Part shown: positions 2,952 through 63,880 of the stretch, one piece after another
Layout: each line of letters opens with the position of its first letter
Position numbering within the stretch: position 1 is the first letter of the stretch
Source of the DNA: Thermoanaerobaculia bacterium
GTDB lineage: Bacteria; Acidobacteriota; Thermoanaerobaculia; Multivoradales; UBA5704
DNA: 64,000 bases
Assembly: GCA_045807625.1 (NCBI GenBank)
Contig: JBJMHA010000085.1
Coordinates: forward strand, 38,831 to 102,830
Direction of reading: 5' to 3'
The notes under the pieces: model-generated
Databases searched by the model: none
The model's input: only the letters and a program-made list of their open reading frames with translations
What the model was told of the DNA's origin: nothing
Translations under genes and position numbers: made by a program

Positions 2952-3053
2952 GTAGGGGCGGCCCTGCGTGGCCGCCCTGTTCCAGTCTCCACGGCGGTGC
3001 GGTCACGCGGGGCGGCCTCCAAAACAGGGCGGCCACACAGGGCCGCCCCTACA
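2952..3053. repeat. REPIN: two inverted GTAG-headed REP palindromes (GTAGGGGCGGCCCTGCGTGGCCGCCCTG ... CAGGGCGGCCACACAGGGCCGCCCCTAC)
   Basis: Inverted pair of ~28-nt palindromic units directly visible in sequence; same family recurs at 16748-16852, 47612-47627, 58777-58804, 61315-61412. Confidence 0.7.
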
Positions 3054-11399: not shown

Positions 11400-11598
11400 G
11401 GCCCCTCTCCCAACCCCTCCCACCCACCCTCACTGGGAGAGGGAAAGCGGGAAGGGTTTTTCTGATCCGACCGATCGGACGGATCCGACGGATCGGTCGG
11501 ATCTAATTGGCCGGTAAGGGATTTTTGTTTTTCTCCCTCTTCTCCCGGTGTGGGAGGGCGGGAGGGGACGGGAGAAGAGGGCCGGGGTGATGAGGGCT
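11400..11598. repeat. Mosaic of intergenic palindromic elements: CCTCTCCC/GGGAGAGG hairpin, GATC-rich palindrome (GATCCGACCGATCGGACGGATCCGACGGATCGGTCGGATC, ~11462-11510), and CCCTCTTCTCCCGG...CGGGAGAAGAGGG hairpin
   Basis: Direct reading; ~11462-11596 recurs reverse-complemented at ~44995-45140; GATC palindrome also at 50150-50200; hairpin family also at 28699-28825. Lies between convergent methyltransferase and PBP genes. Confidence 0.6.
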
Positions 11599-16378: not shown

Positions 16379-16599
16379 CGGAGTGTTCCTCCTGCCAGAG
16401 AGTTGCGGTGGAATGACCTTTTCAGGGCCCTCAGAGGCTCGCGGCGCGCCCGAGAGGCGCTTCGCCGATCCCCGGCCCCTTTCAAGAGATCGCAACTCGC
16501 GGGAAAAAGACGACAGGAGGAAGCTCCCGGCCGGAAAGACCGCGAGCTCATCGGCTCGCAGCCGGGCGGCGGCATCTCAAAGGCGCGAAGAAATGTCCG

Positions 16600-16925
16600 G
16601 CCTACCGTGCCGCCGCCGAGAAGCTCCGGGCGGGGATCCGCGACGTGGTCTTCCCCCGAGGGGGACGCCGAAAGGCTCTTGGCGAGGGGCACCCGAGCGG
16701 GAGAGACTCTCATGCCGCAAGCGGCACCCGAGAGAGGTGAAAATTCCGTAGGGGCGGCCCTATGTGGCCGCCCTGGGAGGGGGGCCTGCTCCGGCCCTGC
16801 GACCCCACCCACCCAGGGCGGCCACATAGGGCCGCCCCTACATGACCTTCCCTATTTTCAGAACAGAGCGGAGAATAGGTGCCTATTGAGGATTGGCCAC
16901 GTAGATTAGGATGGCACCTGTTCGG
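16600..16925. repeat. Degenerate duplicate of the RAYT 3' end and its downstream region (left direct repeat), interrupted by a REPIN
   Basis: 16600-16712 matches 19384-19447 plus 19638-19680 (gagaagctccgggcNgggatccgcgacgtggtcttcccccg...gccgaaaggctcttggcgaggggcacccgagcggNagag); 16866-16925 matches 19681-19737 (agcggagaataggtgcctattgaggattggcNacgtagattaggatggcacctgttc). About 190 bp present at the right copy are missing here. Confidence 0.55.
16748..16852. repeat. REPIN (perfect inverted pair of GTAGGGGCGGCCCTATGTGGCCGCCCTG REP units around a 45-nt spacer)
   Basis: gtaggggcggccctatgtggccgccctg...cagggcggccacatagggccgcccctac read directly; inserted within the left direct repeat. Confidence 0.75.
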
Positions 16926-16946
16926 GACCAATTCTTTCGCGCTCGG

Positions 16947-17561
16947 CTAGGCTTGACCCACTGTGCCAAGCGCAATATCTCCAGCCGGAACATAGGTGCT
17001 CATCACGACGCCAGATGCTGAGACCTTCGAAGCCACGAGCCGCAGTGCACATGGCCTTGCGCCTTTTTCAAACAATCGCTTCCCACGGCCAAGGACGACG
17101 GGGTACGTCCATACGTGGTATTCGTCAATGAGAGATGCGGCTTGTAGCGTCTGAATTAGATTGCCGCTGCCAATGATTTGAAGATCGTGTCCGGGCTGCC
17201 CCTTGAGCGCGGTGATGGCAGAAACGACGTCACCGCCAAGTACCGATGAGTTGTTCCATTTCAATGACTTCAACGTGCGGGACGCCACATGTTTTTTTGC
17301 CGCGTTGAACGTCCGCGCAATCGCATTATCCTCTGCTTGGTGAGGCCAATAAGCCGCGAACATTTCGTAGGTTTTTCGGCCGAGTACAAGCTCTCGATCT
17401 TTACCATCGAAACCTGCCGCAGAAAGATCCGTTGTTTCGTCCCAGAAAGCCGAGGTCCAACCACCTAACGTAAAATTTCCGGTTGGATCTTCGTCCGGTC
17501 CGCCTGGCGCCTGCATGACACCGTCCAGTGATGTAAATGTGGACGCGATGAGTTTTCTCAT
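16947..17561 (-). CDS. Dihydrofolate reductase family protein (RibD C-terminal-domain type)
   Basis: MRKLIASTFTSLDGVMQAPGGPDEDPTGNFTLGGW...LVLGRKTYE...GSGNLIQTL pattern of the RibD_C/YwjB family; GC content visibly lower (~52%) than surroundings. Confidence 0.75.
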   Translation of the reverse strand: MRKLIASTFTSLDGVMQAPGGPDEDPTGNFTLGGWTSAFWDETTDLSAAGFDGKDRELVLGRKTYEMFAAYWPHQAEDNAIARTFNAAKKHVASRTLKSLKWNNSSVLGGDVVSAITALKGQPGHDLQIIGSGNLIQTLQAASLIDEYHVWTYPVVLGRGKRLFEKGARPCALRLVASKVSASGVVMSTYVPAGDIALGTVGQA

Positions 17562-17700
17562 ATAACTCTCCTATGATTGGATTACATCGTGCTCGCTAAC
17601 GCTTGAGCTGAGCGGCACACCGCAGCGACCGAGCGTCAGCGAGGGCGCGAGGATGTGTCCGCTCGAGCGAGTGTTAGGCGGCGACCTGTCCAGCCAGTTG

Positions 17701-18171
17701 TTACTCCCAATCCTTTTTCAGCATCAGCTCATCTATCCTGTAGGCGTGAAGCATCTCATGCATCAGCATATGCCTGAACATTATATACACCGAGTAGTGG
17801 CTGAACGCCTCATGCTCGGCCGTCCGCTGCCAATCGTCTGCGGATAGCTCCTTCAACCGCTTAACGACCAGCGTCCGCTCCCGCACGTACCGGCCCAGCG
17901 CTTCGTCCAGATCAACGCTCAGTAGTGAGCCGGCCTCCTCGTCCGGTGATGGTTCCATAGACTTTATTTGGGGGAGCGGGTCAGAGAGCATCAACTCCAA
18001 GCGTGCGAGGAATGTCGCCTGCCCGGTAGATATGTGACAGGCATGCTCGTGAGCGGACCACTTGTTCGGCGCAGGGCGGCGCTTGAGGTTCTGGGGTGGC
18101 ACCTCGCGGACGAGGCCAATGATAATGCCAGGCGCGGCCTCTAAAGTAGCTATCAACGTTTGCGTATTCAT
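17701..18171 (-). CDS. DinB/YfiT-like (DinB_2) family metal-dependent protein
   Basis: 156 aa with HEHACHISTGQATFLARL ... MLMHEMLHAYRIDELM four-helix-bundle His motifs typical of DinB_2; low GC like neighbour. Confidence 0.75.
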   Translation of the reverse strand: MNTQTLIATLEAAPGIIIGLVREVPPQNLKRRPAPNKWSAHEHACHISTGQATFLARLELMLSDPLPQIKSMEPSPDEEAGSLLSVDLDEALGRYVRERTLVVKRLKELSADDWQRTAEHEAFSHYSVYIMFRHMLMHEMLHAYRIDELMLKKDWE

Positions 18172-18561
18172 AATCTCCTCCTTAGTCGCGCGCCGCCAGC
18201 AAGCCGCCGCCGAGTAGGCCAGGGGGCCTTACGGCCCCCCAGCCCCTCTAAGAACCGTACGTGCGAGTTTCCCCGCATACGGCTCAAGCACCTCAAAGGC
18301 CGATCCCTTGATCGAACCCGGCTGCCCCTTACGGGACAACCTTCGCGATACTAACATGGTAGGCACCAGGCTCTGGACTCGCCAGAGGAGGGGCTGCACC
18401 GGCGGGTGGTCGAACCACCTCCACCTCTCTTTGCTCTTCCCGTTTAAGGGTGTTCTCGGGGGGCGAGGTGCCATCCGATTCGCGGCGGTTTACCCCCCTC
18501 GCAAACCCAAGTGGTTCTAGGGTGAATCAGATTCGGGACCGATTTTACGTCTTCATAGGGT

Positions 18562-19482
18562 ATGAGCCGACGACTCCGCTTCATCCCCGAAGGAGGAGCC
18601 CTGGTGGAGGTGACCTGCCGGTCGCTCCACAGCCGTCTCCTGTTCCGTCCCAGTCCCGTGCTGAACCAGATCATCATCGGGACTCTCGCCCGGGCCAAGC
18701 AGCGCCACCAGGTCCGGGTCTGTTTCTTCGTCGGCGTCTCCAATCATATGCATCTCTTGCTATGGGTTGAGGACGCCCAAGTGCTATCCAAGTTTATGGG
18801 CTACTTCCTATCGAAGCTGGCGCGGGAGGTCGGGCGCCTGACCGGCTGGAAGGAGAAGATCTTCGGCCGGCGCTACCAGGCCATCGTGGTCAGCCCCGAG
18901 GAGGCCGCCCAGGTCGAGCGACTCCGCTACGGGCTCGCGCACGGCGCGAAAGAGGACCTTGTGGACCGGCCCCGGGATTGGCCCGGAGTCCACGCCGTGC
19001 GGGCGTTGCTCGAAGGCGAGGTCCTGGAAGGGCTCTGGTTCGACCGCACCCAGGAGTACCTGGCGCGCCGCCGTGGCGAGAAGTTTGACCGCCTTCAGTA
19101 CGCGACGCGGGAGGTGCTGGAGCTCGATCCGCTGCCCTGCTGGGAGCACCTGACGGCAGAGCAGAGGCGCGTCCGGATCGCGGCCCTGGTGGAGGACATC
19201 GAGTCCGAGGTCGCCGTCCGGAGGAAGAAGACGGGCGCCAAGCCTCTGGGTGTGGCGGCCGTCCTGGCCAAGAATCCGCTCCAGCGACCGAAGAAGACCA
19301 AAAAGTCGCCCGCGCCGGCTTTCCATGCGGCGAGCAGGGCCGTGCGCCGCGGGCTCTGGGACGCCTACTCCCTGTTCGTCGCGGCCTACCGTACCGCGGC
19401 TGAGAAGCTCCGGGCCGGGATCCGCGACGTGGTCTTCCCCCGGGGGAGCTTCCCGCCACCGTTGCCGTTCGTGGGTGGATAG
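18562..19482 (+). CDS. REP-associated tyrosine transposase (RAYT; IS200/IS605-like Y1 HuH transposase family)
   Basis: 306 aa; HuH motif in VSNHMHLLLWVED, downstream catalytic-Tyr region GRRYQAIVV; window contains multiple GTAG-headed REP/REPIN palindromes, the known substrates of RAYTs. Confidence 0.7.
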   Translation: MSRRLRFIPEGGALVEVTCRSLHSRLLFRPSPVLNQIIIGTLARAKQRHQVRVCFFVGVSNHMHLLLWVEDAQVLSKFMGYFLSKLAREVGRLTGWKEKIFGRRYQAIVVSPEEAAQVERLRYGLAHGAKEDLVDRPRDWPGVHAVRALLEGEVLEGLWFDRTQEYLARRRGEKFDRLQYATREVLELDPLPCWEHLTAEQRRVRIAALVEDIESEVAVRRKKTGAKPLGVAAVLAKNPLQRPKKTKKSPAPAFHAASRAVRRGLWDAYSLFVAAYRTAAEKLRAGIRDVVFPRGSFPPPLPFVGG

Positions 19483-19637
19483 GCCGGCGCAGCAGTGTTC
19501 TTGACCTGATGGAAACTGACCACGGCGCTCCGGGAGGAGTGGACAGCGGAGGTGTGTCCAGGTGAACTGTTCGGGCGAGGATACCGGAAGCGGATGTCGG
19601 CAATCTCGGTCGAATTTGGGGTAGGGAGATACCCGGA

Positions 19638-19737
19638 GGACGCCGAAAGGCTCTTGGCGAGGGGCACCCGAGCGGAAGAGAGCGGAGAATAGGTGCCTAT
19701 TGAGGATTGGCTACGTAGATTAGGATGGCACCTGTTC
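19638..19737. repeat. Right direct repeat (intact copy of the sequence duplicated at 16669-16925)
   Basis: gccgaaaggctcttggcgaggggcacccgagcggaagagagcggagaataggtgcctattgaggattggctacgtagattaggatggcacctgttc; the upstream part of the repeat (19384-19447) lies inside the RAYT 3' coding end. Confidence 0.55.
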
Positions 19738-19850
19738 CCCCCTGGATCTGTAGAGGCTCGCCTCGCGGATTTGGCGGCTCGCCTCGCGGGGCGAGCCGCG
19801 CACGCCGCGGGCGGGAACAAAGCGGCCCCCCTCCCGGTTACAATCTCTCT

Positions 19851-21851
19851 ATGGCAGGCTTCCAGCTCGTATCCAAGTTCACCCCCCAGGGGGACCAGCC
19901 CGAGGCGATCCGCCAGCTCACGGAGGGGCTGGAGCGGGGGGACAAGGAGCAGGTGCTGCTCGGAGTCACCGGCTCCGGCAAGACCTTCACCATCGCCAAG
20001 GTCATCGAGAAGGTCAACCGGCCGACGCTCGTCCTCTCCCACAACAAGACCCTCGCCGCGCAGCTCTTCCAGGAGTTCCGCAGCTTCTTCCCCCACAACT
20101 CGGTCGAGTATTTCGTCTCCTACTACGACTACTACCAGCCGGAGGCCTACGTCCCAGCCACCGACACCTACATCGAGAAAGAGACCAGCATCAACGAGGA
20201 GATCGACCGCCTCCGCCTGCGCGCCACCAAATCCCTGTTCGAGCGGCGGGACGTGATTATCGTGGCTTCCGTCTCCTGCATTTATGGTCTGGGCTCCCCC
20301 GAGGCCTTCTTCGGCATGCTCCAGTTCTTCAGCCAAGGGGACACCGAGGGGATGGACGCCGCGCTCAAGCGGCTGGTCACCATGCAGTACGAGCGCACCC
20401 AGCTCGACCTCTACCACGGCAGCTTCCGGGTGCGCGGCGACGTGCTGGAGATCCTCCCGTCCTACGAGGAGGTCGGCATCCGGGTCGAATATTTCGGCGA
20501 CGAGGTCGAGCGCATCACCCGCTTCGACGTGCTGCGGGGGGAGACCCTCCAGCAGATCGACCGCATCGCGGTCTATCCCAAGACCCACTACGTCACTCCC
20601 AAGTCGCGGCTGGAGCGGGCCGTCGAGACCATCGCCGAGGAGCTGAAGGAGCGGCTCGACGTGCTGGAGGCCGAGGGCAAGCTCCTCGAGCGCCAGCGCC
20701 TGGAGCAGCGCACCCGCTTCGACCTCGAGATGCTCAAGGAGATCGGCTATTGCCACGGCATCGAGAACTACTCGCGCCACCTCTCCGGCCGCGCCCCGGG
20801 CGAGCCGCCGCCGACCCTCTTCGACTACTTCCCCGACGACTTCCTCCTGGTGGTCGACGAGAGCCATCAGTCCCTGCCGCAGGTGCGCGGCATGTACGCC
20901 GGCGACCGCTCGCGCAAGCAGACGCTGGTCGACTTCGGCTTCCGCCTCCCCTCGGCGCTCGACAACCGGCCGCTCACCTGGGACGAGTTCGACGCCCGCA
21001 TGGGGCAGCGGATCTACGTCTCGGCCACGCCGGCCCCGATGGAGCTGGAGCGCACGGGGGGCGTGATCGTCGAGCAGCTCATCCGTCCCACCGGCCTGCT
21101 CGATCCGGTGATCGACATCCGTCCGGCCCAGGGGCAGGTGGACGACCTCGTGGGCGAGGTCCGCAAGGTGGTGGCCAACAAGGAGCGGGTGCTGGTGACC
21201 ACGCTGACCAAGCGGATGGCCGAGGAGCTCACCCAGTACCTCAACGAGCTGGGGGTCCGCGTCCGCTACATGCACAGCGACATCGAGACCCTGGAGCGGG
21301 TGGAGATCGTGACCGGCCTGCGCCGCGGCGACTTCGACGTCCTGGTGGGGATCAACCTGCTGCGCGAGGGGCTCGACCTGCCGGAGGTCTCGCTGGTGGC
21401 CATCCTCGACGCGGACAAGGAGGGGTTCCTGCGCAGCGAGACCTCGCTGATCCAGACCTCCGGCCGGGCCGCCCGCAACGTCAACGGCCGGGTGATCTAC
21501 TACGCCGACCACATGACCGACTCGATGCAGAGGGCGATCGGCGAGACCGAGCGCCGCCGCGTCAAGCAGGGGGAGTACAACCAGGAGCACGGGATCGAGC
21601 CGGCGACCATCCTGAAGGACATCCACAACCCGCTGGTCCAGATGATGAACCTCGACCTCTACGCCGCGGGCGGCCCGCCGCGCCTGCGCGCCGGGGCCGA
21701 TGGCGACGGCTCGGAGCTGCCGATCGCCGAGCGCATCTCCCGTCTGGAGAAGGAGATGCGCGCCGCCGCCAAGCGCCTGGAGTTCGAGGAGGCCGCGGCG
21801 ATGCGCGACCAGATCCGGGAGCTGCGGGAGCTCCAGATCTACGCCGGATAA
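19851..21851 (+). CDS. uvrB: Excinuclease ABC subunit B
   Basis: [49 protein letters not shown]... full-length UvrB with helicase motifs and C-terminal UvrC-interaction helix; GGTTACAAT -10-like element ends 6 nt before the ATG. Confidence 0.95.
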
Positions 21852-21894: not shown

Positions 21895-22132
21895 GGGGGA
21901 GCTTTGCGTCTTTTGGGGAGCCCCGCGTCCCATCGGGGGGAAGTCTTCCCCTTTTTTGGGGAGCCTTCCCCTTTTTAGGAGGAGCCCTCCCCTCTTTTGG
22001 GGAGCCTTCCCCTTTTTTGGGGGACCGTTCCCCACTTTTGGGGAACCCTCCCCCTTTTTTGGGGAGGCCTCCCCTTTTTGGGGGAATCATTCCCCAATTT
22101 TGGGGAGCCTTCCCCTTTTTGGGGAGACCCCT
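21895..22132. repeat. Tandem array of ~10 degenerate 20-21-bp units, each a mini-hairpin plus T-run (consensus TTCCCCTTTTTTGGGGAGCC)
   Basis: cttttggggagcc ttcccctttttaggaggagccc tcccctcttttggggagcc ttccccttttttgggggaccg ttccccacttttggggaaccc tcccccttttttggggaggcc tcccctttttgggggaatca ttccccaattttggggagcc ttcccctttttggggagaccc; contiguous, no spacers. Immediately downstream of uvrB. Confidence 0.8.
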
Positions 22133-28510: not shown

Positions 28511-28787
28511 GGGTTTCTCTCCTTCCAAGAGCTTGGGTTTATCGATCTTTGATGCTCGTCTGTGCCGTGCCAGTAGGGGGTGGCGACGACACCCGGATGC
28601 TCTGGAGATCGGAATTCGTGGGGAAAAGACGACAGGGGTCTTCAATCTGCCTGGATTTGGCGTTCTCGGCAGGTTGGCCCTCATTTGATCCCCACTGGGC
28701 CCGGCCCTCTTCTCCCGGCCTCCCCTCCGGCCTGACGGGAGAAGAGGGAGAAGTTAGCTCAGCTTGTCAAAAGCCCCCTCTCTCCCG

Positions 28788-31309
<2,522 letters not shown>

Positions 31310-43200: not shown

Positions 43201-45084
43201 TTGGCCATGTCGGACCACGAGCAGCTCGCAGAACGCATCCGGGCCCTGCCCGACCGCCCCGGGATCTACGTCTTCAAGGACGCCGAGGGGAAGGTGCTGT
43301 ACGTCGGCAAGGCGAAGTCCCTGCGCAAGCGAGCGTCGTCGTATCTGGTGCGGGACCATGAGCCGCGGCTGGCCGCGATGGTCTCCGAGGCGGTGGACCT
43401 GGAGTACGTGGTCACCGACTCCGAGTCCGAGGCGCTCCTGCTCGAGAACAACTGGATCAAGCGCCAGCGCCCCCGCTACAACGTCCTGCTGCGGGACGAC
43501 AAGACCTATCCCTATCTGAAGCTGACGATGCGGGAAGAGTTCCCCCGCATCGCCTTCACCCGCCGGATCTCGAATGACGGCGCCGAGTATTTCGGACCCT
43601 TCCTGCCCGGCGGCCTCGCCCGCAAGGCGATCAAGCTGGTGCAGAAGCTCTTCAAGGTGCGCGTCTGCCGGATCGAGGTGGACGGCTCCTGGGCCCGCCC
43701 GTGCCTCTACTACGACATGCACCGCTGCCTCGGGCCCTGCGTGGCGAAGCTCACTACCAAACAGGTCTACGACGAGGCGGTGGAGCAGGCGCGGCTGTTC
43801 CTCTCCGGGCGGACCGAGCCGCTGCTGAAGACCATCAAGCGGGAGATGTGGGAGGCCGCCGAGGCCATGGACTATGAGCGCGCGGCCCAGCTCCGCGACA
43901 CCCTGAACGAGGTCGAGGCGGTGAGCCAGCGGCGCAAGCTCTCCTCGGTGGACGAGGAGGACCTCGACGTCTATGGGGTCCACGTCTCGGGGGGCAACGC
44001 GGCCGTGGTCTCCCTGATCATGCGCGAGGGGCAGGTGCTCGACCGCCGGGAGCTGTTCTGGGAAGGGGTGGGGCACATCTCGCCGGAGCTCCTACTCTCC
44101 GAGGTGCTCCCCCAGATCTACGATCGCACAACCTTCATCCCCAAGGAGATCCACCTGCCGGTGCCGATCGAGGGGGAGGAGGCGCTGGTCGACTGGCTGT
44201 CGGAGAAGAAGGACGAGCGGGTCTATCTGCGCCTGCCGTCGCGGGGGCCGAAGGCGGAGCGGGTGAAGCTCGCCATGCACAACGCCGAGCTGGCCCACAA
44301 GCGCCGGTTCCGGGCTGGCGGAGTGGAATCCCCGGGCGCCTCCTCCCTGGAGAGGCACCTCGACCTCTCCGAGCCGCCGCGGCGGATCGAGGGTTTCGAC
44401 ATCTCCCACTTCCAGGGGGGCGAGACGGTGGCGTCGATGGTGGTCTGGGAGGAGGGGAAGATGCGGAAGGGGGAGTACCGCTCCTTCAACATCAAGGATC
44501 TCACCCAGCCGGACGACTTCGCGTCGATGCGCCAAGCGGTCGAGCGCCGCTACCGGCGGGTGCTGGAGGAGGTCGGCGCCATGCCGGACCTGATCCTCAT
44601 CGACGGCGGCATCGGCCAGCTCAACGCCGCGCTGGGAGCGCTGGCCGAGCTCGGAGTGGAGGAGACGTCGATCGTCTCGCTGGCCAAGCGGGAGGAGGAG
44701 ATCTACGTCCCGGGAGTGCCGGAGCCGCTCCGGCTGCGGCGGGACGATCCCGGCCTGCGGCTGCTCCAGGAGATCCGCGATGAGGCCCACCGCTTCGCCG
44801 TCTCCCGCCACCGTGCGCGCCGCTCGGCCCGCACCCTCCACAGCCGTCTCGACGAGCTGGCCGGCGTCGGCCCCCGCCGCCGCAAGCTGCTGATCCAGAC
44901 CTTCGGCAGTGTGCAGGGGGTGCGCGAGGCGCGGTTGGAGGATCTGCAGAACGTGCTCGGGACTCTGATGGGGCGGAAGATTTTTGAGCAGCTCCACGCG
45001 GAAGAGCCCTCATCACCCCAGCCCTCTTCTCCCGGCCCCTCCCTCCCTCCCGCACCGGGAGAAGAGGGAGAAAAACAAAATTAA
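43201..45084 (+). CDS. uvrC: Excinuclease ABC subunit C
   Basis: GIY-YIG domain (PGIYVFKDAEGKVLYVGKAKSLRKR), UvrBC-interaction and endoV/RNaseH-like domains, C-terminal HhH; TTG 43201 or ATG 43207 start. Confidence 0.95.
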   Translation: MAMSDHEQLAERIRALPDRPGIYVFKDAEGKVLYVGKAKSLRKRASSYLVRDHEPRLAAMVSEAVDLEYVVTDSESEALLLENNWIKRQRPRYNVLLRDDKTYPYLKLTMREEFPRIAFTRRISNDGAEYFGPFLPGGLARKAIKLVQKLFKVRVCRIEVDGSWARPCLYYDMHRCLGPCVAKLTTKQVYDEAVEQARLFLSGRTEPLLKTIKREMWEAAEAMDYERAAQLRDTLNEVEAVSQRRKLSSVDEEDLDVYGVHVSGGNAAVVSLIMREGQVLDRRELFWEGVGHISPELLLSEVLPQIYDRTTFIPKEIHLPVPIEGEEALVDWLSEKKDERVYLRLPSRGPKAERVKLAMHNAELAHKRRFRAGGVESPGASSLERHLDLSEPPRRIEGFDISHFQGGETVASMVVWEEGKMRKGEYRSFNIKDLTQPDDFASMRQAVERRYRRVLEEVGAMPDLILIDGGIGQLNAALGALAELGVEETSIVSLAKREEEIYVPGVPEPLRLRRDDPGLRLLQEIRDEAHRFAVSRHRARRSARTLHSRLDELAGVGPRRRKLLIQTFGSVQGVREARLEDLQNVLGTLMGRKIFEQLHAEEPSSPQPSSPGPSLPPAPGEEGEKQN

Positions 45085-45140
45085 GCTTGAACAAGCCTTA
45101 TCAGACCGATCCGACGGATCCGTCGGATCGGTCTGATCAA
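44995..45140. repeat. Composite palindromic element (reverse-orientation copy of 11462-11596): CCCTCTTCTCCCGG/CCGGGAGAAGAGGG hairpin + AAAAACAAAA linker + perfect GATC palindrome TCAGACCGATCCGACGGATCCGTCGGATCGGTCTGA
   Basis: gccctcatcaccccagccctcttctcccggcccctccctccctcccgcaccgggagaagagggagaaaaacaaaa... is the reverse complement of 11517-11596; sits between convergent uvrC and GT39 genes; GT39 stop codon lies in the palindrome arm. Confidence 0.6.
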
Positions 45141-46741
45141 GAGGGAGGATGGGAGGGGTCGGGAGAGGAGTCGGGGGCGGGGGGCCGCGGCATCCTTTTC
45201 AGCACGTAGATCAACTGATCGTTCCCCCGGAAGGTATCCGTCGCGGGGTTGGTGGCGGTCGATCCGAACCGCGCCGCGACCTGATAGTTGGCCAGGATCC
45301 ACCGGCGGACGAACCGGGGGATCTCGGCCTTGCCGTCCTGGCCGATCACCGCTCCCAGGATCAGGTAGTGGTCGCGCCGCTCGATCACCCGTGCCCGCGC
45401 CTTCTCCCAGAGGCGGACCTGGACCTTGGCCGGCAGCGTGTCGAGCCGCGAGGGGAGGAAGGCGAGCTCTCTCAGGAAGAGCACGCGGTCGGTGGGTTTC
45501 ACCTGGCCGGCGAGCCAGCGGACCGCCTTCTCGCGAGAGTCCACGATGGTGAGCTGGAGCCTGCCGTATTCGTAGAGCGCCGGGGCGAAGAGGAGGACGG
45601 GCAGGACCGCGGCGGCGAGGTCGAGCCAGAGGCGATGGGAGGTCCTCTCGCGCAGCCAGGCGTAGAGCAGGGCGATGGCGGCGCAGGCCAGAGGGACGAG
45701 CGCGAGCAGGTTCCGGAACGCCCGGAACTGGTAGGAGGCCACCAGCAGCCCGGTGGCGGCGCCGAAGAGGAGCCAGCCCGCCACCGCGCCCGACCAGCGG
45801 CGATCCCGCAGGCCCACGGCGAGCCCCGCCACCATTAATAGCAGGAAGACGGTTCCCACCTCGGCGTGGGTCGTCGGCAGGTCCCATTCCGCCCGGTGGA
45901 CCGCCTGGTCCCAGTAGGAGCCGGCCTCTTGAGAGCCGTAGATCGAGCCCATGTCGCGCACGCTGTGGAGCACGGTCTCCGTCCGCAGCGCCAGGGCCGG
46001 CATGGCGAGGAGGAGGGCGAGGATCGACGCGGCTCCCGCCAGAAACAGCCGGCGGAGCCTCTCCAGCCAGGAGGCCGGCGCGAGCAGGATCGCCAGCGCG
46101 ACGGCGAGGCAGACCAGGGCGGCCGGATATTTGGTGGCCCCCGCGAGGCCGGCCATCACCCCCGCCAGGATCGCGTCGCGCCGCGGATGCTCAGCCGTGC
46201 GGCTCTTCTCGGCGAAGAAGAGCGCGGCCATGACGAAGAAGGCCACCAGCGGATTGATGTTGACGATCGAGCTGCGCATCACCAGGGCCGGGACCAGGGC
46301 CGCCAGCCACGCCGCGAAGAGGCCCGCCGCGGGGCCAGCGAGGCGCCGGACCAGGAGGCCGGTCAGCAGGACAGTCCCGAGCGAGAAGGCCAGGGTGACG
46401 AGGCGGCCGAGGACGATCACCGCCGGGGGCTCCAGGATGTCGTAGTACTCCGGAGGCGAGGGGGAGAGGTCGTCGAGGAGCGGGTGGCCGTGGGTGAGCG
46501 CGTAGGCCGGCGACCAGGCCAGGGCCGCGCCGGCCACGAGATAGAAGGGGAGGGAGGGGTAGCTGTAGCTGTCCGGCTCCCAGGTGCGGTGCGCGAGCAG
46601 ATAGGTGGCGTGATGGAGGACGTGCCCCTCGTCGACGTAGCTCATGTAGGGGAGGCCCGAGGTGAGCGCGGGCAGGCGGATCCCGGCGGCGACGGTCAGG
46701 ACGGCCAGCCACGGCAGGAGGGATCTCAAGCGGCTCGTCAT
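45137..46741 (-). CDS. Polytopic membrane glycosyltransferase family 39-like (ArnT/PMT-type) protein
   Basis: 534 aa with ~10 predicted TM helices, N-terminal loop with acidic motif (SYVDEGHVLHHA), typical GT-C fold layout. Confidence 0.65.
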   Translation of the reverse strand: MTSRLRSLLPWLAVLTVAAGIRLPALTSGLPYMSYVDEGHVLHHATYLLAHRTWEPDSYSYPSLPFYLVAGAALAWSPAYALTHGHPLLDDLSPSPPEYYDILEPPAVIVLGRLVTLAFSLGTVLLTGLLVRRLAGPAAGLFAAWLAALVPALVMRSSIVNINPLVAFFVMAALFFAEKSRTAEHPRRDAILAGVMAGLAGATKYPAALVCLAVALAILLAPASWLERLRRLFLAGAASILALLLAMPALALRTETVLHSVRDMGSIYGSQEAGSYWDQAVHRAEWDLPTTHAEVGTVFLLLMVAGLAVGLRDRRWSGAVAGWLLFGAATGLLVASYQFRAFRNLLALVPLACAAIALLYAWLRERTSHRLWLDLAAAVLPVLLFAPALYEYGRLQLTIVDSREKAVRWLAGQVKPTDRVLFLRELAFLPSRLDTLPAKVQVRLWEKARARVIERRDHYLILGAVIGQDGKAEIPRFVRRWILANYQVAARFGSTATNPATDTFRGNDQLIYVLKRMPRPPAPDSSPDPSHPPS

Positions 46742-46801
46742 CTTTCTTCATCATATGAAAAGAACCACCGGAGCGCCGGCCGGGTTACAATGTGTTTCAT
46801 C

Positions 46802-47615
46802 GATGGAATCTGACGTTCACCGACCGACGCAAGACGAGCTCCGGGTTTTCTCGGAAAGGATCGCCAGACGGCTCGCCGAGCGCCCGCTCGATCTCGACCC
46901 CGGCTTCCACCGGGAGCGGGTGGCCGGCCTGCTGCGGCAGGCGGGGGAGGCGGGTTTCTATGAGCTCCTCGACCTGCCGCCCACCGCGGCGGCCCAGGAG
47001 ATCCACGACGCCTACGAGCAGATCGCCCGCCTGGTCCATCCGCTGAACGCCCGGCAACTGGGGTTGGAAGGCCGGGAGGGGGTGCTCGAGATGCTCTTCG
47101 AGCGGATCACCCAGGCCTATCTGAACCTCTCCCAGCCGGACCGCCGCAAGGCCTACGACCGCGGGATGTCCTCGCAGGCCTGGTCGGCCGCCCTGGGCCC
47201 CGCTCCTGGCCAGCGCCGGGACGAGGTCCGCGACGTGGCCGACCGCTATCACAAGCGGGCCCTGGAGCTGATCGCCAAGGACGAGCTCTATCTCGCCATC
47301 GAGCTGTTGCGGGAGGCGGTGCGCATCTCGCCGCAGGCGGATCTCTATGCCCTGCTCGGCAAGCTCCAGACGAAGAACCCCCGCTGGCTGCGGGCGGCGG
47401 CGGAGAGCCTGCAGCAGGCGATGGCGCTCGGCTCCCGCGATCCCGAGCTCCCGGCCGCCCTCCACGACGCGCAGGCGCGGCTCGACGCTGGCGAATGGCG
47501 CGCCACCGATGCCACCACCGGGGTGAGCTCCCGGGCTGCCCGCGCCGGCAAATGGGAGGACGCTCCGGACGTCGAGGTGTTCGATCCGGAGGAGGAGATC
47601 GGGGGGCGGCGGTAG
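46802..47615 (+). CDS. J-domain (DnaJ-like) protein with C-terminal TPR-like helical region
   Basis: FYELLDLPPTAAAQEIHDAYEQIARLVHPLNARQ...EMLFERITQAYLNLSQPDRRKAYD matches J-domain helices II-III (HPL in place of HPD). Stop codon TAG is the TAG of a GTAG REP head. Confidence 0.65.
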
Positions 47616-47633
47616 GGGCGGCCCTGTTACAAT
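47612..47633 (+). promoter_or_regulatory. REP half-unit (GTAGGGGCGGCCCT) fused to GTTACAAT -10-like element, positioned as the rnpB promoter
   Basis: ggtaggggcggccctGTTACAATatccgag; TACAAT ends ~5-8 nt before the predicted 5' end of RNase P RNA. Confidence 0.4.
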
Positions 47634-47636
47634 ATC

Positions 47637-48052
<416 letters not shown>

Positions 48053-49868: not shown

Positions 49869-51923
49869 GTGGGACCCGCTCGCGCCAGGGATCTCGCCGA
49901 CGCCGGCCTCCACACGGTTCGCGATCTGATCCTCCACCTCCCCTTCCGCTATGAGGACCGGCGCGGCGTCCTGCCGGTGGCCGCGGCCACGGCCGGGGTC
50001 TCCGCCACTTTCCGGGGGCGCCTGGTGGAGGTGCGCCGCATCCGCACCCGCCGCCGGAGCTTCTCGCTGGTCCGCGGCTTCGTGGAGGACGATTCGGGCC
50101 GGCTGCCGGTGGTGTGGTTCAATCGGCCGTATCTGGCGAGCCAAGTGAATCCGACGGATCCGACGGATCCGACGGATCCGACCGATCCGTCTGATCGCGA
50201 GGAATATGTCCTCCACGGCCCGGTGCGGCCCGCGAAAGAGGGCCTGGAATTGGTGAATCCCTCCTGCGAGCGGGCGGCGGCGGAGGCCGTCCACGGCGAC
50301 CGGATCGCGCCCGTCTATCCGGCGGCCGGCAAGGTGGGGCCGGCGGCCCTGCGGCGGATTCTGGACGGCATCCTTCAGCAAGTCGACCTGCCGGGGGAGG
50401 TGCCGGAGACGGTGCCCACGGAGCTTCTCCAGCGCCACGGGCTGCCGCCGCTGGGGGAGGCCCTGGAGGATCTCCATCACCCGGGAGCGGACGCGGACGT
50501 CGAATCCTTGAATGAACGGCGCACCCCGGCTCATCGCAGGCTGATCTACGGCGAGCTCCTGGAGCTCCAGGTGGCGTTGGCCCTCCTGCGCCTGCGGGAG
50601 GAAGCGGAGCCGCGGACCCGGCGCTACCGGACCGGCCCCCGGCTCCGGAAGCTTCTCGCGGAGATCCCGCCGTTCCCGCTGACCGGCGCCCAGAAGCGGG
50701 TGGTGACGGAGATCCTGGCCGACCTGGCCCGCCCCCACCCCATGCTCCGGCTGCTTCAAGGGGACGTGGGGAGCGGCAAGACGGTCGTGGCGGCCCTGGC
50801 GCTCGCCGCCGCCCTGGAGAGCGGCTACCAGGGGGCCTTCATGACGCCCACCGAGCTGCTGGCCGAGCAGCACCACGAAGGCCTGGCGCGGCTGCTGGGG
50901 GACCGCTGGCGGACGGTCCTGCTGACCGGCTCGGCCGCGGAGGCGGACCGCCGCCGCGCGGAGCTCGCCTCGGGGGAGGCGCGGCTGGCCGTGGGGACCC
51001 ACGCGCTGATCCAGGAGACCGTCGAATTCCAGGACCTGGGGCTGGTGGTGATCGACGAGCAGCACCGCTTCGGCGTGGCCCAGCGCGAGCTCCTGCGCCG
51101 CAAGGGGGACCGGCCGGACTTGCTGGTGATGACCGCCACGCCCATCCCCCGCTCCCTCGCCATGACAGTGTATGGCGACCTCGCCGTCTCCACCCTGGAC
51201 GAGCTGCCGCCGGGCCGCTCGCCGGTGCGGACCGAGGTGGTGCCGGCGCGCCGGCGCGAGGAGGTCTACCGCCGGCTGCGGGCGGCGGTCCAGGCCGGGG
51301 AGCGGGCCTACGTGGTGGCCCCCCTGATCGAGGAGAGCGGGCGGATCGATGCCGCCTCGCTGGCCGAGGTGGAGGCGCGGGTGCGCGAGGCCCTGGAGGG
51401 GTTCCCGGTCGCGATGGTCCACGGCCGTATGCTGTTCCCTGAGCGGGAGCGGGCCCTGCGCGCCTTCGCCAAGGGGGAGGTCCGGGCGCTGGTGGCGACC
51501 ACGGTGATCGAGGTCGGGCTCGACGTGCCCGCGGCCACCTGGATGGTGATCGAGAGCGCCGAGCGCTTCGGCCTCGCCCAGCTCCACCAGCTCCGGGGAA
51601 GGGTAGGGCGGGGATCGGCGCCCGCCACCTGTGTCGCCCTCCACGGACGGCTCTCGGAGACGGCCCGCCAGAGGCTGGAGATCTTCGCCTCGACCACGGA
51701 CGGCTTCGAGATCGCCGAGCGGGACCTCGCCCTGCGCGGCCCCGGCGACCTCCTGGGGACCCGCCAGGCCGGCCTGCCGTCCCTCAAGGCCGCCCGCCTG
51801 CCGGAGGACTGGGACTGGCTGGTGCGGGCGCGCGACGATGCCCGTGAGATGCTGGGGCGGCTGGACGCGGCGGCCTTGCGGGAGCTGGAGAAGGCGGTGG
51901 CTTCCAGGAGCGGAGGGGTATGA
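49869..51923 (+). CDS. recG: ATP-dependent DNA helicase RecG
   Basis: GVGPARARDLADAGLHTVRDLILHLPFRYEDR N-terminus, wedge domain, helicase motifs (GDVGSGKT, DEQHRFGV, TATPIPR, etc.). True start probably a non-ATG codon a few codons upstream of GTG 49869. Contains in-frame NPTDPTDPTDPTDPSDRE insertion. Confidence 0.9.
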   Translation: MGPARARDLADAGLHTVRDLILHLPFRYEDRRGVLPVAAATAGVSATFRGRLVEVRRIRTRRRSFSLVRGFVEDDSGRLPVVWFNRPYLASQVNPTDPTDPTDPTDPSDREEYVLHGPVRPAKEGLELVNPSCERAAAEAVHGDRIAPVYPAAGKVGPAALRRILDGILQQVDLPGEVPETVPTELLQRHGLPPLGEALEDLHHPGADADVESLNERRTPAHRRLIYGELLELQVALALLRLREEAEPRTRRYRTGPRLRKLLAEIPPFPLTGAQKRVVTEILADLARPHPMLRLLQGDVGSGKTVVAALALAAALESGYQGAFMTPTELLAEQHHEGLARLLGDRWRTVLLTGSAAEADRRRAELASGEARLAVGTHALIQETVEFQDLGLVVIDEQHRFGVAQRELLRRKGDRPDLLVMTATPIPRSLAMTVYGDLAVSTLDELPPGRSPVRTEVVPARRREEVYRRLRAAVQAGERAYVVAPLIEESGRIDAASLAEVEARVREALEGFPVAMVHGRMLFPERERALRAFAKGEVRALVATTVIEVGLDVPAATWMVIESAERFGLAQLHQLRGRVGRGSAPATCVALHGRLSETARQRLEIFASTTDGFEIAERDLALRGPGDLLGTRQAGLPSLKAARLPEDWDWLVRARDDAREMLGRLDAAALRELEKAVASRSGGV
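50150..50200. repeat. GATCCGACG-type palindromic repeat inserted in-frame within recG
   Basis: gaatccgacggatccgacggatccgacggatccgaccgatccgtctgatcg encodes NPTDPTDPTDPTDPSD; same sequence family as intergenic palindromes at 11462-11510 and 45100-45140. Confidence 0.6.
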
Positions 51924-58160: not shown

Positions 58161-58241
58161 GCAATCTCCTTCCGGGAGGAACGGCGGCCGGGCCGCCAGC
58201 TCTCCACTCCAGGAATGCCAGCACAGCAGAAGGAGGACCGC

Positions 58242-58772
58242 ATGGGTCTCATCGATTTCGTCAAGAACGTCGGTCATAAGCTCGACCTCGGCCATAACCA
58301 GCACCAGCAGGCACAGTCTCCCGCCCAGGCGTCTCAGGCCAGCCAGGGGCCGTCCCAGCAGCAGGCCGCGCAGCTTCAGGAGAAGCAGAAGGAGACCGCG
58401 CTCGCCAACCTCGTCAACCAGATGGGGTTCCACGTCCAGGACCTGTTCCTCGACGTCGAGGGGGACAAGGTCACGGTCAGGGGCAAGGCCAACAGCCAGG
58501 AGCAGAAGGAGAAGATCGTCCTGCTGCTCGGCAACAGCGAGGGGATCGGCTCCGTGGACGACCAGCTCCAGGTGGCGAATCCCGAGCCCGCGGCCCAGTA
58601 CTACGACGTCAAGCCGGGGGACAACCTCTCCAAGATCGCCAAGCAGGTCTACGGCGACGCCAACAAGTACCACCAGATCTTCGAGGCCAACCGCCCGATG
58701 CTCAAGGACCCGGACGCGATCTTCCCCGGACAGAAGCTCCGCATCCCGGCCGCGGCGGCGGTCCACGCCTGA
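58242..58772 (+). CDS. BON domain / LysM peptidoglycan-binding domain protein
   Basis: ATG 58242 (ORF-track arithmetic) with AGGAGG RBS; Gln-rich linker; BON-like segment (GFHVQDLFLDVEGDKVTVRGKANSQEQKEKIVLLLGNSEGIGSVDDQL); C-terminal LysM (YYDVKPGDNLSKIAKQVYGDANKYHQIFEANRPMLKDPDAIFPGQKLRIP). Confidence 0.75.
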   Translation: MGLIDFVKNVGHKLDLGHNQHQQAQSPAQASQASQGPSQQQAAQLQEKQKETALANLVNQMGFHVQDLFLDVEGDKVTVRGKANSQEQKEKIVLLLGNSEGIGSVDDQLQVANPEPAAQYYDVKPGDNLSKIAKQVYGDANKYHQIFEANRPMLKDPDAIFPGQKLRIPAAAAVHA

Positions 58773-58776
58773 TTTT

Positions 58777-58804
58777 GTAGGGGCGGCCCTATGTGGCCGC
58801 CCTG
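58777..58804. repeat. Single REP unit (GTAGGGGCGGCCCTATGTGGCCGCCCTG)
   Basis: Direct reading, 5 nt after the LysM gene stop; between convergent genes. Confidence 0.6.
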
Positions 58805-58807
58805 TCT

Positions 58808-59950
58808 CTATTTCGCCGCCGTCTTCAACGGCACGAACCGGGGCTCCGAGACGGTCTTGCCGTCGAACACCCGCAGCACCAGCCCGGACCCCTGGGCCGT
58901 GGCCGCGCAGCCGGTGAGCAGGATCCAGTCGTCCCCCTTGGGGACCAGGATCTGGGTGATGCCCAGCTTCTCGCCGTTCTTGGTCTTCACCTCGCCGGGC
59001 ATCTCGGTCAGCTTCAGCCAGTCGCCGCTCTGGGTGAGACGGGAGAGGACGATCTTCTCCTCCGAGGGGACCCGGTGGTCGTACCAGACGAGGCGGAGGG
59101 CGCCGCGGTGGTCGCCGAAGGGGAAATCCACCCAGTAGTCCTTCCCCTGCCGCCAGATTCCGACCGTGCCCTGCGTCCCCCAGGGGGTCCAGGTCGAGCG
59201 GCGCCAGGTCTTCCCCGAGTCGGACGAAAGATAGACCACCCCGTCCCCGGAGACGTAGGCCGCCGAGGTGCCGGTCAGCGCGATGAGCTGGCCCCGCCGC
59301 TCCACCTTGATCCCGGGGAGGCCGGTCACCCACGTCTCCGGCGGGCCGGAGGCGGAGAAGAGGCCGGTGCCGGTGAGGACGCCGTCCTTGCGCTGCGGAG
59401 CGGGGAGCGCCGAGGGATGGCCCACGGCGGCGACGATCATCGATCCCCGGTTCCGCCAGTCCTTCCCCTCGTAGCGGAAGGCCCAGGCCTGCTCCTGGCC
59501 GGCTTGGCCGCTCACCCCATGGAGGAGGAACCAGGGGGCCCCGGTCTGGTCGTAGGTGGGGTCCGCGGTCGAGGCGATCGGCGCGGAGAGTGAATCGCCC
59601 AGGGGCTCCCAGGTCCCCGAGCTCCAGCGGACCGGCTGGATGCACGAGGGCCCGCAGGGGACGACCGCGATCACCGGCCCGGGTCCCACCGAGCCGCCGT
59701 AGCGCCCCTTGGGGTCGTCCGGCCAGGCGCGGGCCTCCCGGCCGTCGCCGTCGAGCTCCACGATCCAGCTCGATTGGCCGTCGGCGATGGGGGGAACGGA
59801 GAAGAGGGTGCGGCCGGACGAGGTGTCCATGCCGATCAGCGTCAGGGCCGTCGAGCCGTCGCAGATCGGGGGAGCGGCGGCGACCGGGATCGCTCCCAGG
59901 GAGAGAGTCAAGAGAGCCGCCGCGGAGCGAAGAAGAACACGAGAGCTCAT
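58808..59950 (-). CDS. Secreted BNR/Asp-box repeat protein (sialidase-like beta-propeller), unknown function
   Basis: Signal peptide MSSRVLLRSAAALLTLSLGAIPVAAA; Asp-box SxDxGxTW (LSSDSGKTWRR); beta-rich, W/G-rich repeats. Confidence 0.65.
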   Translation of the reverse strand: MSSRVLLRSAAALLTLSLGAIPVAAAPPICDGSTALTLIGMDTSSGRTLFSVPPIADGQSSWIVELDGDGREARAWPDDPKGRYGGSVGPGPVIAVVPCGPSCIQPVRWSSGTWEPLGDSLSAPIASTADPTYDQTGAPWFLLHGVSGQAGQEQAWAFRYEGKDWRNRGSMIVAAVGHPSALPAPQRKDGVLTGTGLFSASGPPETWVTGLPGIKVERRGQLIALTGTSAAYVSGDGVVYLSSDSGKTWRRSTWTPWGTQGTVGIWRQGKDYWVDFPFGDHRGALRLVWYDHRVPSEEKIVLSRLTQSGDWLKLTEMPGEVKTKNGEKLGITQILVPKGDDWILLTGCAATAQGSGLVLRVFDGKTVSEPRFVPLKTAAK

Positions 59951-61314: not shown

Positions 61315-61412
61315 GTAGGGGCGGCCCTATGTGGCCGCCCTGGGCGGGGGAAATTCCCTAACAGACAACGCGCCCACCCCCCCTGTGCGGCCACATCGGG
61401 CCGCCCCTGCAA
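61315..61412. repeat. REPIN with degenerate right arm (GTAGGGGCGGCCCTATGTGGCCGCCCTG ... CTGTGCGGCCACATCGGGCCGCCCCTGCA)
   Basis: Direct reading; right REP head mutated GTAG->GCAG; between leucine dehydrogenase gene start and bcp gene end. Confidence 0.65.
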
Positions 61413-63730: not shown

Positions 63731-63880
63731 AAATATTGTTGAAAGCTGTAAAACAATGTTTGGAGGGCTCAAACATTGTTTCTCCGTCCCAAACAATGAA
63801 AAAAGCTCCCGGACATTGTTTTTTCGTCCCAAACATTGTTTGAAGCCACCAAACAATGTTTGAAGCGGCCGAACAATGTT
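63731..63880. repeat. Array of eight AACA(A/T)TGTT palindromic cores at exact 20-bp periodicity (20-bp tandem units), AT-rich in a 70% GC background
   Basis: aatattgtt(63731) aaacaatgtt(63751) aaacattgtt(63771) aaacaatgaa(63791) ggacattgtt(63811) aaacattgtt(63831) aaacaatgtt(63851) gaacaatgtt(63871): same offset in every 20 nt; begins 19 bp upstream of the methyltransferase start codon; a probable divergent gene begins ~63895. Confidence 0.8.

Follow-up and report, generated by a model that had tools for sequence, protein, structure and literature searches.

A Y1/HUH gene bounded by inverted repeats and a GTAG REP/REPIN family share a Thermoanaerobaculia contig, probably as two separate elements

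A stretch of 64,000 nt from a Thermoanaerobaculia bacterium (NCBI GenBank assembly GCA_045807625.1, contig JBJMHA010000085.1, positions 38,831 to 102,830 of the forward strand; "the window" in the following) contains a transposase-like gene and a family of short palindromes, and raises the question whether the two belong together. The gene, an open reading frame (ORF) with an ATG start at 18562..19482 (+), encodes a 306-aa protein of the TnpA-Y1 (Y1/HUH) superfamily. The palindromes are copies of the 28-mer GTAGGGGCGGCCCTATGTGGCCGCCCTG with a GTAG foot, i. e. repetitive extragenic palindromes (REPs), and occur singly or as inverted doublets (REPINs). An original prediction combined them into one system in which ORF 18562 is the REP-associated tyrosine transposase (RAYT) of the genome and the REPs and REPINs are its non-autonomous cargo. 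The analysis described here points to another answer, which we regard as the probable one: the gene and the REPs are two separate elements that share the window. The distinction matters because REPIN-RAYT systems serve as models of long-term intragenomic replicators, and pairing a Y1 gene with a nearby REP can mis-assign them.

The association of gene and REP was examined at 83 loci (558 kb) with homologues of 56-91% identity to the 306-aa protein. The REP was present at one of these loci and missing from the other 82, compared with about 7.5 REPs in the 64-kb window. Around homologues of at least 85% identity, about 99 kb of DNA contained no full REP. In the window itself no REP lies within 1.7 kb of the intact gene on either side; the closest one ends at 16841. 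A generic search for GTAG-footed hairpins gave 9 per 100 kb at the homologue loci, heterogeneous in sequence and not adjacent to the gene, and 39 per 100 kb at loci selected for the REP; no GTAG hairpin family was enriched near the homologues. In the opposite direction, none of the 108 REP-bearing loci among the matches listed contained the 306-aa gene. The absence of REPs around the homologues is thus a direct observation, and it speaks against the gene and the repeats being one system.

The protein itself points the same way. In E. coli TnpA-REP the GTAG foot is read by W94, Q95, E100, H101 and R104, and these residues are kept in the REP-associated subclasses (PMC6006769). In the hhalign alignment they fall on F, G, A, I and S of the 306-aa protein (niWQprfwEHaiR versus kiFGrryqAIvvS), so that all five are lost. 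The class-2 RAYT signature Y---NP (PMC6006769) is absent as well; in 0 of 18 homologues is the catalytic tyrosine followed by NP. Against the NCBIfam RAYT equivalog (NF047646) the protein scores 33.5 bits, with a cut-off of 80. The features that define a RAYT are therefore mostly lacking.

What the protein does retain is the catalytic core. The HMHLLL motif recognised in the original prediction is present at residues 62-67, and among 18 aligned homologues neither H62 nor H64 varies. Profile alignments with hhalign place these two histidines on the HUH motif of E. coli RayT and of two Koribacter TIRYTs (sequences from the supplement of PMC3733652), which are Y1 proteins flanked by terminal inverted repeats (TIRs). 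The catalytic tyrosine had been sought in a RYQ stretch. In the same alignments this residue, Y105, pairs with the WQxRF/Y strand, and it is Y123 that aligns with the tyrosine of Y---NP. The catalytic residues are thus most likely H62-M-H64 and Y123 (RLRY, followed by GLAHGAKEDLV). Within the motif Y123-G-L-A-H-G, the residues Y123, H127 and G128 are invariant among the 18 homologues.

The relationship to Y1 transposases stood up to closer inspection, although the profile check by which it had been proposed to be confirmed came out divided: Pfam Y1_Tnp (PF01797) matches 17 of 18 family members at E<=0.01, but the window protein reaches only 22.2 bits against a cut-off of 23 and, as stated above, stays below the RAYT cut-off. 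An AlphaFold2 model (pLDDT 79, pTM 0.70) has as its best Foldseek match 4er8_A, i. e. E. coli TnpA-REP in complex with a REP hairpin (target-normalised TM-score 0.71; root-mean-square deviation 3.0 A over 156 columns), followed by the TnpA proteins of ISDra2 and IS608. A sequence search of solved structures with the 306-aa protein gave no match. The C-terminal half (about residues 146-306, ~160 aa) is conserved among the homologues, yet no Pfam family matches it at E<=10 and hence neither a helix-turn-helix (HTH) nor a DnaA-C profile. A word-indexed search returned more than 1300 homologues of constant length, and an exhaustive search 619 clusters at 50% identity (E<1e-30), nearly all of 300-320 aa and matching end to end. 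Close homologues with an organism name are few, and all come from Thermoanaerobaculia. Judged by motifs, profiles and predicted fold, the 306-aa protein is a relative of the Y1/HUH single-strand-DNA nucleases and belongs to a very large clade. JGI labels many of its members "REP element-mobilizing transposase RayT"; for the clade as a whole this pipeline label is probably wrong.

If the gene is not accompanied by REPs, what does accompany it? In the window the gene lies between two inward-facing copies of the core AGGTGCCATCC. The left copy, at 18466..18476 (+), is situated 86 nt 5' of the ATG and belongs to an extended match GGGGGG..AGGTGCCATCC; the right copy, at 19723..19733 (-), is found 241 nt past the stop codon. 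Together they delimit a unit that extends roughly from 18457 to 19737 and thus measures about 1.28 kb. The corresponding motif of the family is AGGTGCCA[C/G/T]CC, which occurs upstream of the gene on the plus strand and downstream on the minus strand, i. e. inward on both sides. In 44 kb of homologue-locus flanks, with one mismatch allowed, 31 upstream (+) and 37 downstream (-) copies within 400 nt of the gene pointed inward, compared with 4 and 1 outward; from the background of 6.6 per 100 kb about 3 copies would be expected. With the strict motif 45 copies were found near the gene at a background of 1.2 per 100 kb. Both the enrichment and the orientation are seen directly in these counts. 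At many loci AGGTGCC is contained in the best flanking inverted repeat. Compared with shuffles, the TIR regions show no excess of folding (z about 0), which makes them inverted repeats, unlike the hairpins of REPs.

The DNA between the repeats and the gene is conserved too. An alignment of the flanks of four loci in different contexts showed conserved non-coding sequence, about 95 nt on the upstream and about 255 nt on the downstream side, ending in GGTGGCACCTGTTC. In a homology breakpoint test similarity was lost at the motif in four locus pairs, the only four that were informative. Between the left repeat and the ATG lies a conserved non-coding leader (18497..18561 (+); ..CCCCCCTCGCAAACCCAAG..GATTTTACGTCTT..) of about 65 nt, which is retained in homologues down to 56% amino acid identity and has the core TTTT(A/C)CGTCTTAT 10-25 nt 5' of the ATG. 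A promoter scan found no sigma-70 consensus in this leader, and promoter and terminator scans around the gene gave nothing. Possible explanations are a leaderless mRNA or a role of this DNA as a cis site. The spacer of about 240 nt from the stop codon to the right repeat is conserved in length; its sequence conservation is patchy.

At the outer ends of the units a further peculiarity was observed. At 10 of 29 distinct ends the outer 5-10 nt of locus-specific flank plus GGTGCC are immediately duplicated in tandem, whereas the same arrangement exists at 2 of 820 control GGTGCC sites. At several other ends longer duplications cover the whole motif. From these junctions we infer a nicking or rejoining point at about GGTGCC^A. 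In the reading we prefer, the enzyme, with H62/H64 and Tyr123, would act on the inverted ends of its own unit and nick at or next to this position. A short defined end motif combined with junction duplications makes this a candidate cleavage site that is tractable for biochemistry.

The window also contains the remains of a second unit. Similarity to the intact copy identifies a 5'-truncated copy at 16598..16923 (+), which comprises the last ~21 codons (16598-16662 (+), 92% identical), a block B (16665-16702 (+)) and a block C with the right repeat (16861-16923 (+), 97% identical), in which the core AGGTGCCATCC lies at 16909..16919 (-). Compared with the intact copy it has a deletion of about 194 nt and an insertion of about 158 nt. 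The homology of both copies stops at one base just outside the right repeat (16923, corresponding to 19737). This shared boundary is directly visible, and it fits a duplication or movement of the whole unit. That the unit was duplicated or moved whole at least once would explain a truncated copy with an identical right boundary. The insertion contains a REPIN with two perfect arms (REPIN 2, 16748..16841; arms 16748-16775 (+) and 16814-16841 (-)); this doublet had been reported before, with an end at 16852 that has to be corrected to 16841. As REPIN 2 is located in the truncated copy and absent from the intact one, the arrangement looks as if a REPIN had inserted into a Y1 unit that was already dead; it is not a REPtron.

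Which enzyme, then, could move the REPs? A scan of a genome collection with the 28-mer, two loop bases left free, found it in at least 108 stretches, which confirms the GTAG palindromes as a REP/REPIN family. Many of these stretches come from metagenome-assembled genomes (MAGs) of Thermoanaerobaculia and another from an Acidobacteriota chromosome with 54% GC; further ones come from MAGs labelled, as recorded, Chloroflexi, Nitrospirae, Clostridia, Oscillatoria, Chthonomonadales and Geobacteraceae. At three loci (L057, L192 and L193) the 28-mer is found 28/28 inside RAYT genes of the type MPNHFHGI-[REPIN]-DWFKTMTTNEYIRGV..LWQRNYYEHIIR..YIxNNP, on unrelated contigs with 48-55% GC. In L057 it is in frame in a truncated RAYT gene (..VGAALCGRP..GHPHRGAPT-VCDIVDWLKTMTT..WQRNYYEHIIRDD..YIVNNP); in L192 and L193 (48-49% GC) it has 0 mismatches and is each time paired with a different inverted arm. 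A protein search with the L057 segment gave 1850 matches. Many of the 120 listed have the structure MPNHFHGI-[VGAALCGRP...G(R/Q/H)PHR(A/V/G)APT]-DWFKTMTTNEYIRGV, and some are truncated at the N-terminus. The segment VGAALCGRP...G[RQH]PHR[AVG]APT, present in dozens of RAYT proteins, is a translated REPIN. REP insertions within the gene have been described for subclass 2.4 RAYTs by Quentin 2018 (PMC6006769).

The presence of the 28-mer in frame inside subclass-2.4 RAYT genes can be read directly from these sequences and suggests that a RAYT of this subclass (Bertels group 4) probably mobilises the REP family, from a site outside the window or from one since lost. ORF 18562 would then not be the enzyme that spreads the GTAG REPs; a subclass-2.4 RAYT elsewhere in the genome, or lost from it, would be. 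The conservation of the REP arm at 28/28 from genomes of 48% GC to genomes of 70% GC, inside a RAYT gene, is an illustration of how REP and enzyme may travel jointly. The REP-bearing loci (108 listed) were searched for RAYT genes by tblastn and hidden Markov model (HMM), with the 306-aa protein, an HMM of its N-terminal domain, E. coli RayT and six subclass-2.4 RAYTs as queries; only the truncated RAYT of L057 was found. The 64-kb window contains no RAYT of another type. One of the subclass-2.4 genes with the exact 28-mer (6001-6396 of L192, ena:ERZ25039477 contig_89052, 49% GC) adjoins an archaeal-type ribosomal protein operon (S4e, RNase P p29, SUI1). Possibly this REP/RAYT pair extends to archaea; a chimeric contig would be another explanation.

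Several observations weigh against the separation of gene and REPs, or against parts of it, and some of them are what one would expect if ORF 18562 were the RAYT of the REPs after all. Gene and REPs do lie within the same 64 kb; the truncated gene copy is followed after about 50 nt by a perfect REPIN; at L146, one of the homologue loci, the REP lies 262 nt upstream of the gene; and OY970373.1 has both the REP and the gene family, so that co-occurrence at the level of the genome is possible. The fold nearest to that of the 306-aa protein is that of E. coli TnpA-REP, and the JGI name for the homologues is RayT. Other points concern the proposed unit and its counterpart. The strict motif was detected in only 23 of 57 flanks upstream and 32 of 54 downstream; 17 of 48 loci have it on both sides. 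One 7.66-Mb chromosome carries two paralogues with only 72% identity, and one of them is located near uvrB, like the window gene, which lies upstream of uvrB; both findings fit vertical inheritance and not active transposition. From the Thermoanaerobaculia DNA searched no subclass-2.4 RAYT was recovered. We also know of no biochemistry for the 306-aa clade.

Against a single system stand the intact gene without flanking REPs, the loss of Y---NP together with the GTAG-reading residues, the sub-threshold RAYT score, and the 28-mer itself, which is found within RAYT genes of another type and in MAGs that carry the labels of other phyla. In addition, the gene has a flanking motif of its own. Nor is it strictly single-copy, given the truncated copy in the window and the two paralogues on one chromosome; its partial synteny with uvrB fits vertical descent. 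We therefore consider it very unlikely that ORF 18562 is the RAYT of this genome with the GTAG REPs as its cargo, and the claim that the gene and the repeats form one system is not upheld.

Accepting that the gene and the REPs are separate, the 1.28-kb unit could still be an autonomous and currently active insertion sequence (IS), a TIR-bounded offshoot of IS200/IS605, unrelated to REPs and without a function for the host. The second copy with 92-97% identity and the same right boundary would agree with this, as would the presence of several paralogues per genome or contig, the discrete ends of the unit in different contexts and the junction duplications at these ends. However, same-genome paralogues are only 72% identical, near-identical full copies were not seen, and hundreds of clusters show strong conservation of both length and sequence. 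There is partial synteny with uvrB (in the window and in L110), and tnpB, subterminal hairpins and the Y---Q motif are all lacking. An active IS thus seems an unlikely description.

A further step, which we propose only tentatively and would not ourselves bet on, is that the ~306-aa proteins are an undescribed subclass of TnpA-Y1, characterised by the YGLAHG motif, a new C-terminal domain and the terminal motif AGGTGCCAYCC. In this case the enzyme would nick its own flanks at GGTGCC^A and leave locus-specific tandem duplications at the junctions, a trace by which HUH activity could be recognised. In evolutionary terms the clade would be a widespread semi-domesticated element of the Acidobacteriota with a mechanism unlike both REP-hairpin recognition and IS608-type transposition.

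The REPs of the window, the second of the two elements in the reading we prefer, are a genuine and ordinary REP/REPIN family of an already characterised kind. They have a 5' foot of the GT[AG]G type, form short palindromes with the stem GTAG followed by GGGCGGCC...GGCCGCCC, are multi-copy and extragenic, and occur as inverted doublets. The 28-mer has 6 matches at <=3 mismatches in the window, compared with 0 in 100 dinucleotide-preserving shuffles, and folded as single strands the doublets form long hairpins (z = -9.8, -8.7 and -6.0). Of the copies named in the original prediction, three doublets and one singlet could be recovered; the other supposed singlet, at 47612, is only half a REP. All copies in the window are intergenic or at gene ends, as had been noted. 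REPIN 1 (2952..3052; arms 2952-2979 (+) and 3025-3052 (-)), with the GTAG heads outward, sits between a TPR gene, whose stop codon is at 2932, and a lipoprotein-like gene. The start of the latter is likely the GTG at 2997 within REPIN 1, which would yield MRSRGAASKTGRPHRAAPTIAILLVLAGC, a predicted lipoprotein-like signal peptide encoded in part by the REPIN. The half REP, found with a shorter probe at 47612-47625 (+), consists of 14 nt with the GTAG head and the 5' stem only. Its TAG is the stop codon of the ORF 46662..47615, in accordance with the earlier description. It is followed by TACAAT and by rnpB, which begins at 47643; a consensus promoter scan and a terminator scan at this half REP gave nothing. 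The singlet at 58777..58804 (+), with an 8-bp stem and a 6-nt loop, lies between the convergent genes 58215-58772 (+) and 58808-59950 (-). REPIN 3 (61315..61410), between two minus-strand genes, has an intact arm (61315-61342 (+)) and an arm (61383-61410 (-)), likewise detected with shorter probes, in which GTAG has decayed to GCAG, again as described before.

The location of these copies at gene ends or between convergent genes, together with one decayed arm, one half copy and the failure to find a cognate RAYT in the lineage DNA searched, might suggest that the REPs are host-selected hairpins, such as terminators or mRNA stabilisers, which are orphaned and no longer mobilised in this lineage and lie near the gene by coincidence. 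Yet 5 of 8 arms, including both arms of REPIN 2, are perfect 28-mers, and a REPIN in a recent duplicate of the Y1 unit that is absent from the other copy argues for recent insertion. T-run terminators were not detected at the sites scanned. Of the explanations considered here we hold this to be the least probable, and we continue to regard the REPs as a mobile family separate from the Y1 unit.

Other features of the window lie close to the Y1 unit. At 18209-18287 (-), between the left repeat of the unit and a DinB-like gene (17701-18171 (-)), Rfam detects domain V/VI of a group II intron (RF00029, 64 bits, E=1e-11). It is probably a 3' intron fragment; neither an intron body nor a reverse-transcriptase ORF is evident. 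Over 16400-20000 Rfam reported nothing else except chance miRNA matches on the REPIN. We considered the intron as a component of the Y1 unit, but Rfam gave no matches on three homologue loci (L109-L111); since the intron is absent from the loci scanned, it is not part of the unit and this idea was rejected. The 2.8 kb between the truncated and the intact copy are filled by the DinB-like gene and a RibD_C/DHFR-like gene (16947-17561 (-)), which points to an insertion here or to some local rearrangement.

Three further repeat arrays were noticed. About 45 nt past the stop codon of uvrB (21849-21851), at 21896-22130, there are ~11 tandem units of ~20.5 nt composed of GGGGAGCCTTCCCC+TTTTT, i. e. 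a 5-bp hairpin and then a T run. This unusual array looks like a series of mini terminator-like hairpins. A second repeat family is found at 11456-11598, 45005-45153 and 50140-50211 and also at 28690-28833; in it, a 76-nt block that can form a hairpin (TTTTGTTTTTCTCCCTCTTCTCCCGG...CCGGGAGAAGAGGG...) is attached to runs of a 9-nt unit (GATCCGACG/GATCGGTCG). Two copies of the block are 95% identical and inverted at a distance of 33 kb, and the family looks similar to miniature inverted-repeat transposable elements. Finally, eight palindromic boxes AAACA(A/T)TGTTT, spaced exactly 20 nt apart, lie at 63731-63880 upstream of the last gene of the window and look like an iteron- or operator-like array of putative binding sites.

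The main yield of this analysis is a correction of annotation and a lead on the role of TIR-flanked HUH proteins. No mechanism or function is known for TIR-flanked Y1 proteins, and the 306-aa clade is large and essentially unstudied.

To which known system does the 306-aa unit come closest? In architecture it is the TIRtron, a term introduced together with TIRYT by Di Nocera et al. 2013 (PMC3733652); Quentin et al. 2018 (PMC6006769) largely equate TIRYT with the REP-less subclass 2.1, and no later work on TIRtron/TIRYT turned up in the literature searched. As in TIRYTs, a RAYT-like Y1/HUH protein that is longer than RAYTs and has a conserved C-terminal extension is encoded between inverted repeats that are neither GTAG REPs nor hairpins. 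Its N-terminus is of the M-x-R-x-x-R...HV..R type and its HUH motif corresponds to (S/P)NH[VMF]H. Dispersal of the repeats through the genome is weak or absent, and copies are few, with diverged paralogues. The likeness is thus one of architecture and not of motif. In the 306-aa protein YGLAHG replaces Y---NP, and where TIRYTs have W[EQ]/FQ it has F-G. Its flanking repeats have the core AGGTGCCA[CGT]CC and not GGGGWSAS as in the main TIRYT group, although TIRs unrelated to GGGGWSAS are also listed by Di Nocera 2013 (PMC3733652). Unlike in subclass 2.1, residues 146-306 contain no Bac_DnaA_C, HTH_23 or HTH_28. The hhalign matches to Koribacter versatilis aba2776 and aba3477 reach only E=2e-4 and E=6e-6, respectively, and junction tandem duplications as seen at the ends of the 306-aa family are unreported in PMC3733652 and PMC6006769. 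The clade differs from the published TIRYTs in motifs, TIR core and C-terminal domain.

With E. coli RayT/YafM (4er8, a REPtron) the protein shares the HUH motif and one catalytic tyrosine, and this is its best structural match; it differs in its length (306 aa versus 165 aa), in the replaced GTAG-reading residues, in the absence of flanking REPs and in falling short of the RAYT equivalog of NCBIfam. The Y1/HUH fold is also common to the TnpA proteins of IS200/IS605 (IS608, ISDra2). In those elements, however, the enzyme has a Y---Q motif and the ends carry subterminal hairpins, both absent here; the ends of the 306-aa unit are inverted and not on the same strand, tnpB is absent, and there are no identical elements in high copy number. 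The repeats of the window, in contrast, have their counterpart in the subclass 2.4 system. A RAYT of that type is absent from the window, but the repeats share with subclass 2.4 REPs the GTAG foot, three G-C pairs at the bottom of the stem and doublets with the heads outward. They match the type of a "long canonical REP with a GGG stem foot", and their spread across phyla agrees with that of the subclass 2.4 REPs.

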